Shown piece by piece: positions 1 to 3,890 of a DNA stretch of 3,890 nucleotides; the first letter of the stretch is position 1; every line of letters begins with the position of its first letter. The notes under the pieces were generated by a model, which had not been told where the DNA came from, did no database searches, and saw only the letters and a program-made list of their open reading frames with translations. The stretch is from a virus (Duplodnaviria; Heunggongvirae; Uroviricota; Caudoviricetes). The stretch lies in IMG/VR virus record IMGVR_UViG_2690316115_000024, one strand, 5' to 3'. Made by a program: the position numbers and the translations under genes.

Positions 1-573
1 ATGTTTTGCGAAGAAAAAGTAGCTCAAATGGCTGCATACCTACTTCTTAAGAGAGGTGGGCGCATGGCATATCTGAAATTGATGAAGCTGCTCTATCTGT
101 CTAACCGCCAGTCGATTTTGAAGCATGGCAGGATGATCGGCGAAGATAGCCTTTACTCTATGAAATTTGGACCAGTCATGTCGAATACGCTGAACTTGAT
201 TCGCGGTAAGGCTGAAGGCATTGGTGACTACTGGTACAACTTGATAGAGACGAACGGGCATAATGTATCGTTGCGTTCAGATCCGAGGGAAATGGATGCA
301 GACGAGGTCTTTGATGAATTGAGTCGTGCAGATATCCGGATTTTAGATGAAATCTATTCTCGGTATGGGCATATGAACCGATTTGATCTCGCAAATATGA
401 CGCATTTAGAAAGCGTTTGTCCAGAGTGGCACGATCCTGGCAATTCTCGTAAGCCTATAGACCTGAAAGAAATGCTGATCAGTGAGGGTAAAAGCGAGGA
501 TGAGGCTAATCGCATAATTGGCAAAATGGAAGAATCTCAGAAACTTAAGGAATTTTCTTTGCAATTATCATGA
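1..573 (+). CDS. Panacea/DUF4065-domain protein (SocA/GepA-like 'phage-associated protein'); putative antitoxin or regulatory partner of a two/three-gene cargo module; 190 aa
   Basis: Seen: ORF from ATG at 1 to TGA at 571-573. The N-terminal half shows the pattern I associate with DUF4065/Panacea proteins: an N-terminal VAQMAAYLL segment, the KLMKLLYL motif, and a GPV motif (MKFGPVMSNTL) about 30 residues later. The stop overlaps the next start in ATGA (570-573). Limits: the start codon is at the window edge, so the upstream RBS and promoter are not visible and the true N-terminus could lie upstream. Family call is from memory of the motif, not a profile search. Confidence 0.6.
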   Translation: MFCEEKVAQMAAYLLLKRGGRMAYLKLMKLLYLSNRQSILKHGRMIGEDSLYSMKFGPVMSNTLNLIRGKAEGIGDYWYNLIETNGHNVSLRSDPREMDADEVFDELSRADIRILDEIYSRYGHMNRFDLANMTHLESVCPEWHDPGNSRKPIDLKEMLISEGKSEDEANRIIGKMEESQKLKEFSLQLS

Positions 574-989
574 CGGATTATCAGCCATACAGGAAAGGAA
601 CTGTGCTTGCCCCAACTGGACCATGCAATCATCTTCATGTGATTTGTAATGATCCTGTTTATTACCCCGTTAACGATTGTTATTGTGTTTTAGTTGTTAA
701 TATTTCTAGTATCAAGGATGGTGTCCCCCACGATCCGTCTTGCGTCTTGAATTCTGGTGATCATCGCTTTATCAAGCATCCAAGTTATGTTGTTTACGCT
801 GAAGCTATAATTTGGCGAGTGGATAACATGGTTAGAAAGCAGCGATCGGGTGAGATTTCTGTTCATGATGATATGCCAGAAGCTACATTCAATAGAATTC
901 TGGACGGTTTTGATATCTCTGATGAAGTTACGCCAAAGAACCTTAAATTTAAAAATAAATATTGCGTATCATCTATTGATGATGAGTAA
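570..989 (+). CDS. Hypothetical protein, 139 aa, Cys/His-rich, no family recognised; candidate toxin/effector partner of the upstream Panacea-domain gene
   Basis: Seen: ATG 570-572 overlaps the upstream TGA (571-573), so translational coupling is likely and there is no independent SD. TAA stop at 987-989. Cys at residues 19, 26, 37, 39, 58, 132 and His at 21, 23, 54, 65, 70, 99 (motifs CNHLHVICND, DCYCVLVV, HDPSC, GDHRFIKHPSY), with an acidic C-terminal tail. Local GC is low (roughly 30-40% by hand count of sampled 60-nt stretches). Inference: operon position fits a toxin/effector role. I cannot assign a family. Confidence 0.6.
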   Translation: MTDYQPYRKGTVLAPTGPCNHLHVICNDPVYYPVNDCYCVLVVNISSIKDGVPHDPSCVLNSGDHRFIKHPSYVVYAEAIIWRVDNMVRKQRSGEISVHDDMPEATFNRILDGFDISDEVTPKNLKFKNKYCVSSIDDE

Positions 990-2901: not shown

Positions 2902-3558
2902 TCACTCTCCTTTGATGCGAATGCCAGCGGCGCGCTCGGCTTCACTTTGTTCCCAAAACCACTTGTGAAGCTCCATAAGCTTTTCGTCAATCGGTGCATA
3001 TTTGCGATTAAAGTAGGCCTGAGCATCTTTCTCAGATTCGTCCGGTAATTCGCCTGGGCCAAACAGTGTGTTATAAATCCATGCCAGTCCGCTTTTAGCG
3101 TCGCCAGTCGATTGCCATTCGATAATCGCAGCCTGCATGACCAGAATGTTTTTCCCGATTAATAGGTCCAGTTCTTTGTACCGGTTGCGGATGTATGCAT
3201 TCTCTCTTTGTAATTTTGCGTTGCGCTTCTCTGCGGCTTCCAGCTCAACACGCAGTTTCCCTACCGTTAGCGCAATTTCCTCGTTCTCCTGGTCGCGGCG
3301 TTTTATGTATTGCTGGTTTCTTTCCCGTTCATCTAGCAGCGCCAGCACGGTAGCCGGATTAGCCCTGGCAACAAAATCCCGGACAGGCTTACAATCAATC
3401 TCCGCAATGGGTTGATACGATGTGTAGCCATGCTGTCTTGTATAACTACCGTGACGAATAACGAAAAAATCACCGTTTATTTTTTTAGCCTGCCACTTAT
3501 CTTCACCGGCTTTCACTGCCGCCTCACGCAGTGCCTGATAGTCAATTTTGTTTGTCAT
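2902..3558 (-). CDS. Ead/Ea22-like family phage protein, 218 aa, with a central coiled-coil-like segment
   Basis: Seen: ATG at 3556-3558 with SD GAGG about 7 nt upstream. It overlaps the upstream gene's TGA (3555-3557) in ATGA. TGA stop at 2902-2904. N-terminus MTNKIDYQALREAAVKAGEDKW and a heptad-like charged stretch (ERERNQQYIKRRDQENEEIALTVGKLRVELEAAEKRNAKLQRENAYIRNRYKELD) match my recollection of ead/Ea22-like proteins in lambdoid early-left regions. Confidence 0.75.
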   Translation of the reverse strand: MTNKIDYQALREAAVKAGEDKWQAKKINGDFFVIRHGSYTRQHGYTSYQPIAEIDCKPVRDFVARANPATVLALLDERERNQQYIKRRDQENEEIALTVGKLRVELEAAEKRNAKLQRENAYIRNRYKELDLLIGKNILVMQAAIIEWQSTGDAKSGLAWIYNTLFGPGELPDESEKDAQAYFNRKYAPIDEKLMELHKWFWEQSEAERAAGIRIKGE

Positions 3559-3731
3559 GTAACTACCTCTTCGAATTTCAACTCCAGTTGATCACCCCAG
3601 ATTTCACATGACTCTGAACACGAGCCGGTATCGAATCGCCCGGCCTGCACCATCGCCTGATACAAATTCCAGTAGTCGCTGTCGGCATACATTCTGGCAA
3701 TCCCTTCAAGACTCAGATGACCACGGTACAT
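3555..3731 (-). CDS. Small hypothetical phage protein, about 58 aa (MYRGHLSLEGIARMYADSDYWNLYQAMVQAGRFDTGSCSESCEIWGDQLELKFEEVVT); 5' region abutted by an IS insertion
   Basis: Seen: TGA stop at 3555-3557 overlaps the Ea22-like start. Candidate ATG at 3729-3731 has only a weak, distant SD (AGGT about 9 nt upstream). The ORF track's 83-aa version starts at 3804-3806, which is inside the IS end, so that form is a chimera of IS and phage sequence. The native gene may have been longer and truncated by the IS. Confidence 0.4.
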   Translation of the reverse strand: MYRGHLSLEGIARMYADSDYWNLYQAMVQAGRFDTGSCSESCEIWGDQLELKFEEVVT

Positions 3732-3757
3732 AACGTCTTTACCTGTTCTGCGATGAC

Positions 3758-3890
3758 TGAGGTAGCCTGAGTTTAACGGACACTCCTTCCTGAAATAGAA
3801 TGGCATCAGAAGGAGCTAATAATGAGCAGAAAAACCCAACGTTACTCTAAAGAGTTCAAAGCCGAAGCTGTCAGAACGGTTCTTGAAAAT
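3758..3890 (+). mobile_element. Left end of an IS3-family insertion sequence (best match from memory: IS600), including the terminal inverted repeat and the start of orfA; continues beyond the window
   Basis: Seen: terminal TGAGGTAGCCTGAGTTTAACGGACAC starting at 3758. It begins with the TG typical of IS3-family ends and has GGACAC 20 nt in, as I recall for the IS3 left IR. orfA starts 64 nt inside with a strong SD (AGGAG, 6-nt spacer). Limits: the right end is outside the window, so the exact boundary (3758 versus 3754) and the target-site duplication cannot be confirmed. Confidence 0.75.
3822..3890 (+). CDS. IS3-family transposase OrfA (HTH DNA-binding subunit), N-terminal 23 codons only (MSRKTQRYSKEFKAEAVRTVLEN), truncated by window end
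   Basis: Seen: ATG at 3822-3824 with AGGAG SD. The translation contains the Y-S-x-E-F-K-x-E-A-V motif characteristic of IS3-family OrfA N-termini and matches my memory of the IS600 OrfA start. Confidence 0.8.
   Translation, partial: MSRKTQRYSKEFKAEAVRTVLEN

Follow-up and report, generated by a model that had tools for sequence, protein, structure and literature searches.

A probable PanA/PanT toxin–antitoxin module carried as cargo by a lambdoid Escherichia coli prophage

The virus record IMGVR_UViG_2690316115_000024 (Caudoviricetes) was analysed over a stretch of 3,890 nucleotides, referred to here as the window. Its second open reading frame (ORF2) encodes a 139-residue protein, which an initial annotation had described as an unrecognised, Cys/His-rich partner of the upstream gene and a possible toxin. 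Our analysis suggests that ORF2 is probably the toxin PanT of a two-gene PanA/PanT toxin–antitoxin (TA) module, carried as cargo in a dusA-integrated lambdoid prophage of Escherichia coli, and that it stops growth through a block of translation, likely by RNA cleavage, with PanA neutralising it by binding. The parts of this reading differ in strength. ORF2 very probably belongs to the PanT family and is neutralised by PanA, and it probably inhibits translation. Whether it would act as an RNase in a MazF-type groove we consider an even question. ORF2 is the E. coli prophage copy of the already known T6 PanT family, not a new type of system. The module comprises the following elements.

Positions 1 to 573, plus strand: panA (ORF1), 190 amino acids, predicted antitoxin with a stand-alone Panacea domain.

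Positions 570 to 989, plus strand: panT (ORF2), 139 amino acids, ATG start, predicted T6-cluster toxin with a predicted MazF-like fold.

Positions 570 to 573, plus strand: ATGA overlap of the panT start and the panA stop, read from the sequence; presumptive translational coupling.

The Panacea domain was named, and its paired toxins were catalogued, by Kurata et al. (2022, PNAS 119:e2102212119; PMC8832971). In the supplementary table of that paper toxin cluster T6 includes PanT of Pseudomonas moraviensis (WP_083201923.1), entered as a validated TA pair with the HHpred assignment 'EndoA/PemK/MazF-family RNAses'. The cluster also lists Pantoea septica LMG 5345 (overlap −4), Yersiniaceae bacterium 2016Iso4 (overlap −1) and Corticibacter populi DSM 105136 (PMC8832971). 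All three strains appeared among the relatives of ORF2 in our genome scan, the first two with matching overlaps. The P. moraviensis protein itself was missed by the first profile search, and was reached by using the homolog of Pseudomonas phage Sirocco as query and then opening the cluster. Translation of the PanT_Pse.mor cloning primers given in the paper yielded M-P-G-N-I-L for the forward primer and the C-terminus I-R-Q-N-N-F for the reverse primer. These fit the P. moraviensis protein SDU72800.1 (P0357; 132 amino acids), which starts with MPGNIL and ends with FIRQNNF. The alignment of SDU72800.1 with ORF2 is gapless and has 43% identity over 120 residues (expectation value, E, 6e-34). The T6 accessions were not found in the supplements of the NetFlax paper.

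PanT of P. moraviensis is toxic in E. coli, is neutralised by its PanA, with which it co-purifies, and selectively inhibits incorporation of 35S-methionine, not of thymidine (PMC8832971). The 43% identity of ORF2 to this toxic protein places it in a toxin family that has been validated by experiment. The earlier proposal of a possible toxin is thereby strengthened: ORF2 is homologous to a protein which, according to Kurata et al., is toxic and blocks translation.

The family is large. Homologs of ORF2 form 62 clusters at 90% identity in a large protein collection, and a profile search of 1.84 billion representatives returned 3,478 matches at E ≤ 1e-3 and 2,008 at E ≤ 1e-10, counted as 50%-identity cluster representatives. 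Scanning one genome per species gave 55 loci from Gamma-, Beta-, Alpha- and Zetaproteobacteria, Spirochaetes and others. Homologs occur in phages of Yersinia, Vibrio, Klebsiella, Pseudomonas and Helicobacter; in the Sirocco and Helicobacter prophage loci a PanA homolog lies directly upstream of the toxin homolog. Many E. coli genomes and two phage records contain the ORF2 protein without any change, and RefSeq labels it 'hypothetical' across hundreds of genomes of E. coli, Shigella and Salmonella. ORF2 had no match in Pfam, NCBIfam or PADLOC, where the toxin family is without any model, and comparison with these databases and with PDB sequences gave chance-level hits only (ICMT, DapC and immunoglobulin fragments). 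The word 'unrecognised' is accordingly right for the domain databases and RefSeq, and wrong for the literature, where Kurata et al. had already defined the T6 cluster. Cluster T1 of the same catalogue, which holds phage pairs scored as non-toxic, was considered as the home of ORF2 and rejected, the T1 member from phage Emek being unmatched at E ≤ 1e-3. Several T6 homologs from Pasteurellales (Histophilus, Haemophilus, Pasteurella) are named 'terminase' in RefSeq, as listed in the table of Kurata et al.; this label is probably a naming error that comes from adjoining phage packaging genes.

The gene upstream of ORF2 has the features expected of its partner. Residues 27-137 of ORF1 match SocA_Panacea of Pfam (PF13274) with E 2.2e-19, and RefSeq names the protein 'Panacea domain-containing protein'. 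A panA homolog was present directly upstream of the toxin homolog, on the same strand, in 50 of the 55 genome loci, and a contig end accounts for three of the five loci in which it was not seen. Both results uphold the assignment of a Panacea gene as the partner of ORF2. The identities of the two proteins co-vary pairwise across the loci (r = 0.85). PanA proteins partnered with T6 toxins share the motif C-x-E-W-x-D-P-x-G-S-S-x-P-I (PanA residues 140-152, window positions 418-456), which lies outside the Pfam match. Their N-terminal 60 residues are likewise conserved, and their last ~40 residues are variable and net acidic. One may speculate that the 140-152 motif or the acidic tail is an element that contacts the toxin. 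No solved structure of PanA or of a T6 PanT was detectable by sequence in the PDB.

The ATG of ORF2 (570-572) overlaps the TGA of ORF1 (571-573) to give ATGA, and a −4 overlap between panA and panT was seen in 32 of the 49 related loci that hold both genes. This recurrence bears out the translational coupling to the Panacea gene that had been proposed for ORF2. No Shine-Dalgarno sequence was found at normal spacing before panT; an AAGGA is located 18 nucleotides upstream. RefSeq places the start of the gene at GTG 603, which yields a protein of 128 amino acids (WP_014640052.1). Homologs from other genera conserve the protein sequence of the 11 residues before GTG 603 (M-T-x-Y-x-P-Y-R-K-G-T), and the Shine-Dalgarno-like AGGAAAGGA in front of GTG 603 merely represents the codons for R-K-G. 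Because the N-terminal 11 residues and the ATGA overlap are both conserved, ATG 570 is the better start. The RefSeq start is too late, therefore many database copies are annotated in an N-terminally truncated form. Judged from its sequence, ORF2 is a real gene; it matches the function-unknown family phrog_19071 with E 3e-31.

The predicted structure of ORF2 points to MazF. An AlphaFold2 model, built from 25 family sequences, had a mean predicted local distance difference test score (pLDDT) of 93.2 and a predicted template modelling score (pTM) of 0.86. In a Foldseek search with this model the top 31 matches were all MazF, with probability ~1.0 and template modelling scores (TM-scores) of 0.60-0.66 (target-normalised), and PemK-like proteins were in the lead when a viral structure library was searched. 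A MazF-type SH3-like barrel fold is thus supported for ORF2 by the predicted model. The MazF/PemK/Kid barrel, which had been a guess by eye in the initial annotation, is supported by the Foldseek ranking and agrees with the HHpred result reported for the P. moraviensis homolog. CcdB belongs to the same fold superfamily, and in principle PanT might be a CcdB-like gyrase poison acting on DNA replication. This we consider highly improbable. In fold comparison CcdB was outscored by nine MazF-type toxins, Kid included, and only MazF appeared at the top ranks of the Foldseek list. The C-terminus, which in CcdB contains the gyrase-binding residues, is variable or absent in the PanT family, and the P. 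moraviensis homolog inhibits translation, not replication.

Conservation was counted in 98 representatives of the family with mutual identity of at most 50%. The following elements are conserved.

Positions 630 to 632, plus strand: codon of H21, at the start of strand 2; His in 98 of 98 representatives.

Positions 705 to 710, plus strand: codons of Ser46-Ser47, at the end of the central strand; position 47 is S/T in 96 of 98, position 46 is S/T/C in 93 of 98.

Positions 732 to 764, plus strand: loop D55-x2-C58-x4-G63-x-H65; D55 in 98 of 98, C58 in 96, G63 in 89 and H65 in 97.

Other conserved positions are G113 (97/98), Y76 (95/98), S117 (95/98) and S72 (94/98). Residues 48-71 are well ordered in the model (pLDDT ~96), with almost no strand assigned by DSSP. 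The conserved polar residues map to the start of strand 2, the end of the central strand, the loop 48-71 and the start of the next strand. In MazF-RNA structures these are the elements of the substrate groove.

ORF2 contains six Cys (positions 19, 26, 37, 39, 58 and 132) and six His (21, 23, 54, 65, 70 and 99). The counts given in the initial annotation were correct, and the segments CNHLHVICND, DCYC, HDPSC, GDHRFIKH, YCVLVVNISS and SYVVYAEAIIWRV were all located. Relative to the composition of the E. coli proteome (1.15% Cys, 2.27% His), six Cys in 139 residues exceed chance (binomial P = 0.006), and six His are within chance (P = 0.10). C19, C26, C37, C39, C132, H23, H54, H70 and H99 vary across the PanT family, and the toxic Pseudomonas PanT lacks C19, C26, C37, C39, C132, H70 and H99. 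Since these residues vary and most of them are missing from a toxic family member, the richness in Cys and His is mostly a trait of the enterobacterial clade. A multi-Cys zinc cluster was rejected as a feature of the family, because C19, C26, C37, C39 and C132 are clade-specific. An acidic C-terminal tail (SSIDDE) is present, as had been noted. It is not conserved across homologs, and residues 135-139, with pLDDT below 50, are the only disordered part of the AlphaFold2 model.

The GC content of ORF2 is 38.3%, compared with 43.1% in ORF1 and 47% in the remainder of the window, and the sliding-window minimum (36%) is at positions 751-1050. ORF2 is indeed the most AT-rich part of the window.

Several results weigh against a MazF-type RNase, or more generally against an active toxin. 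PF02452 did not match ORF2 at E ≤ 1, and it matched none of the 98 diverse family members at E ≤ 0.1, so that there is no bridge to PemK. The hhalign comparison of the family with a MazF/Kid profile, made from three sequences that were confirmed as exact against the PDB, gave a probability of 0.4%, which is not significant, and family profiles searched against PDB sequences found no MazF. The catalytic Arg of MazF opens strand 2 and a Thr/Ser closes strand 3; they are R25 and T48 in the Bacillus subtilis enzyme and R29 and T52 in that of E. coli. Of these two, the PanT family retains the hydroxyl residue, position 47 being S/T in 96 of 98 representatives. It has no conserved Arg where MazF has the catalytic one; the residue at position 20 varies (K, N, L, D and others), with the register uncertain. 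MazF-type chemistry is therefore not to be assumed for PanT. As to what might take its place, the grouping of H21, D55, C58 and H65 is a candidate known from conservation, not from coordinates. Kurata et al. call the T6 toxins 'putative RNases', so the RNase activity is putative in the original work as well (PMC8832971). The same authors found that two phage-borne PanA partners of cluster T1, from E. coli MOD1_EC5558 and Salmonella phage Emek, were non-toxic in E. coli (PMC8832971).

A forced full-length hhalign alignment, also not significant, was collinear with the secondary structure. In it S46 and S72 paired with T48 and S73 of B. subtilis MazF, and H21, also by the order of secondary structure elements, came to lie no more than one residue from R25. 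Given the lack of significance, this residue register is a weak guide only.

The lack of a conserved Arg in the place of the MazF catalytic residue suggests an alternative in which PanT has the same fold and blocks translation by other chemistry. H21, D55, C58 and H65 could form a Cys-His-Asp triad, as in a hydrolase, deamidase or transferase that acts on a translation factor or on RNA, or they could form a catalytic or structural His2-Asp-Cys zinc site. The almost complete conservation of the four residues (H21 and D55 98/98, C58 96/98, H65 97/98) fits this model, as does the loop 48-71, which is long, confidently modelled and carries D55, C58, G63 and H65; metal-binding and specialised active-site loops typically look like this. 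The number of these residues is sufficient for four metal ligands; structure searches returned no match to the fold of a zinc protein. There was no fold or sequence match to a Cys protease, deamidase or zinc enzyme in the searches, the conserved residues fall on the parts of the fold from which MazF builds its RNA groove, and RNases with two His are common. On balance we regard other chemistry as unlikely. The corresponding general proposal, that T6 PanT proteins keep the MazF fold and have swapped its Arg/Thr RNase centre for an H21/D55/C58/H65 device with a reaction new to the CcdB/MazF superfamily, is in our view doubtful to a similar degree. If it were true, a new catalytic device on the MazF scaffold would be present in a large family (3,478 clusters at 50% identity) for which there is no Pfam model.

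The non-toxic T1 genes raise the possibility that the prophage copy is inactive as a toxin in E. coli, having been attenuated or domesticated, or that it has some other phage function, with PanA as its partner for a different reason. The name 'terminase', given in RefSeq to some T6 proteins, could be taken to point in the same direction. This explanation is improbable. Every family-invariant residue is intact in ORF2, and the protein is identical across many E. coli genomes and two phage records. The panA-panT pair and the ATGA overlap are conserved across phyla, and the T1 proteins, judged by the unmatched Emek protein, are not homologous to ORF2.

For the preferred reading, a PanA-controlled toxin that blocks translation, we propose the following mechanism. 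As read from the sequence, panA and panT are co-transcribed on one transcript, and initiation at panT is coupled to termination of panA through the ATGA. PanA, a stand-alone Panacea protein, would bind PanT directly and keep it inactive, as in a type II system; free PanT would block protein synthesis and growth would stop. Both of these steps have been shown for the P. moraviensis homolog. PanT would most likely cleave mRNA, tRNA or rRNA endonucleolytically in a groove of the MazF type; the family-invariant residues H21, S/T46-47, D55, C58, H65, S72 and Y76 fall on the elements of that groove. H21 and H65 may perform the acid/base chemistry, with D55 orienting one of the two His and with S/T47 and S72 contacting the phosphate. 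We infer by analogy the toxicity of the E. coli prophage copy, the roles of the residues and the biological role, which might be phage defence or stabilisation of the element.

The remaining part of the window consists of early-left DNA of a lambdoid prophage and encodes, on the minus strand, a PrtN-type excisionase, an Rv2179c-like 3′-5′ exonuclease, a DUF551 protein and an Ea22-like protein. Two features follow the module.

Positions 1029 to 1202: ORF3, 57 amino acids, phrog_2741; phage backbone.

Positions 1221 to 1246 (L001 9221-9246), plus strand: strong intrinsic terminator found by a scan, with an 11-bp stem, 6 GC pairs and a T tract.

The terminator sits between orf3 and the convergent xis/PrtN gene, and ends the rightward transcript panA-panT-orf3. 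A single sigma-70-like promoter match was found upstream of panA (TTGACC-17-TAAACT, L001 7846-7874), outside the window. ORF3 was rejected as a third component of the module: no other PanAT locus contains it, and phage mEp460 carries it together with the excisionase but without PanAT. As ORF3 occurs at none of the other loci, the module consists of two genes.

The first 1,300 bases of the window are identical in E. coli O103 RM8385, an O157:H7 strain and others; among phages they are identical in Lys8385Vzw and 99.2% identical in SKA5. In RM8385 the panA-panT pair is located at the end of the prophage and adjoins a dusA fragment. A partial fragment of dusA, the gene for tRNA-dihydrouridine synthase, precedes panA by about 250 bp, shortly before the window begins (L001 7643-7747). 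Because a dusA fragment flanks the prophage end, the prophage is considered to be dusA-integrating. In mEp460 the slot between int/attP and ORF3 (L059 2784-3687) is occupied by an unrelated 177-aa gene, gp23. The presence of an unrelated gene in the same slot identifies panA-panT as exchangeable cargo. At the far end of the window, positions 3758-3890 are the left end of an IS600 insertion sequence (IS3 family), with the orfA start at 3822 (MSRKTQRYSKEFKAEAVRTVLEN); homology to the intact prophage of strain MSB1_9I ends at 3757. IS600 interrupts the minus-strand gene 3555-3806 at its 5′ end, and the first codons of that reading frame consequently come from the insertion sequence.

The module fills a variable slot by the attachment site of a dusA-integrating prophage that is found in O157, O103 and other pathogenic lineages. 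Its place in this variable cargo slot makes the module a candidate for a prophage-encoded role in defence or stabilisation. Nothing specific emerged from a search of the literature on DUF4065 and anti-phage activity. In the P2-like Peduoviridae phage Sirocco (L002 929-1884) panA and panT overlap by 1 base and are located at the genome end, near the portal and terminase genes. In the Sirocco record the toxin gene is unannotated, and a short ORF on the opposite strand is annotated in its place. The genome-end region of P2-like phages is known for anti-phage cargo. In a metagenome-assembled genome of Methylococcales (L041 2944-3294) the toxin homolog starts with MVFNERKVSQ, a PanA-like N-terminus, and continues with toxin residues from ~36 to the end; it looks like a decayed locus, left by a deletion that fused the beginning of panA with the 3′ portion of panT.

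For annotation, the gain is that a protein 'hypothetical' in RefSeq can now be named PanT (T6) toxin and its neighbour PanA antitoxin, with the RefSeq start of the toxin 11 codons too late. For the toxin family, which combines a MazF fold with an invariant His/Asp/Cys/His set of its own and lacks the catalytic Arg, the question is one of chemistry.

Three known systems can be compared with the module. The first is SocA-SocB of Caulobacter, a type VI TA system and the source of the founding Panacea antitoxin. PF13274 is common to SocA and ORF1, but ORF1 scored only 14 bits with the NCBIfam SocA equivalog, for which the cut-off is 190, and SocB is unrelated to the PanT toxin. SocA works as an adaptor for ClpXP; PanA proteins act on their toxins by direct binding.

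The second is MazF. The loop between strands 1 and 2 is much shorter in PanT than in MazF, the MazF beta hairpin is replaced by the loop 48-71 with its invariant D, C and H, and PanT has an extra C-terminal helix (122-131). The antitoxins also differ: MazF is paired with antitoxins of the MazE/PemI/Kis type, PanT with the Panacea-domain protein PanA.

The closest counterpart is the P. moraviensis pair. It has the same gene order, panA then panT, with an overlap of 1-4 bases, and its PanA is likewise a stand-alone Panacea protein ('noNTD') with a similar N-terminus (MIFSEQKVAQ vs MFCEEKVAQ). The two toxins have H21, H23, H54, D55, C58, H65, S72, G113 and S117 in common. ORF2 differs by five additional Cys (C19, C26, C37, C39 and C132), by H70, which is W in P. 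moraviensis PanT, and by a 7-residue acidic tail. The settings are different as well: ORF2 is in an E. coli lambdoid prophage, whereas the P. moraviensis locus is tabulated as 'NotPhage'.
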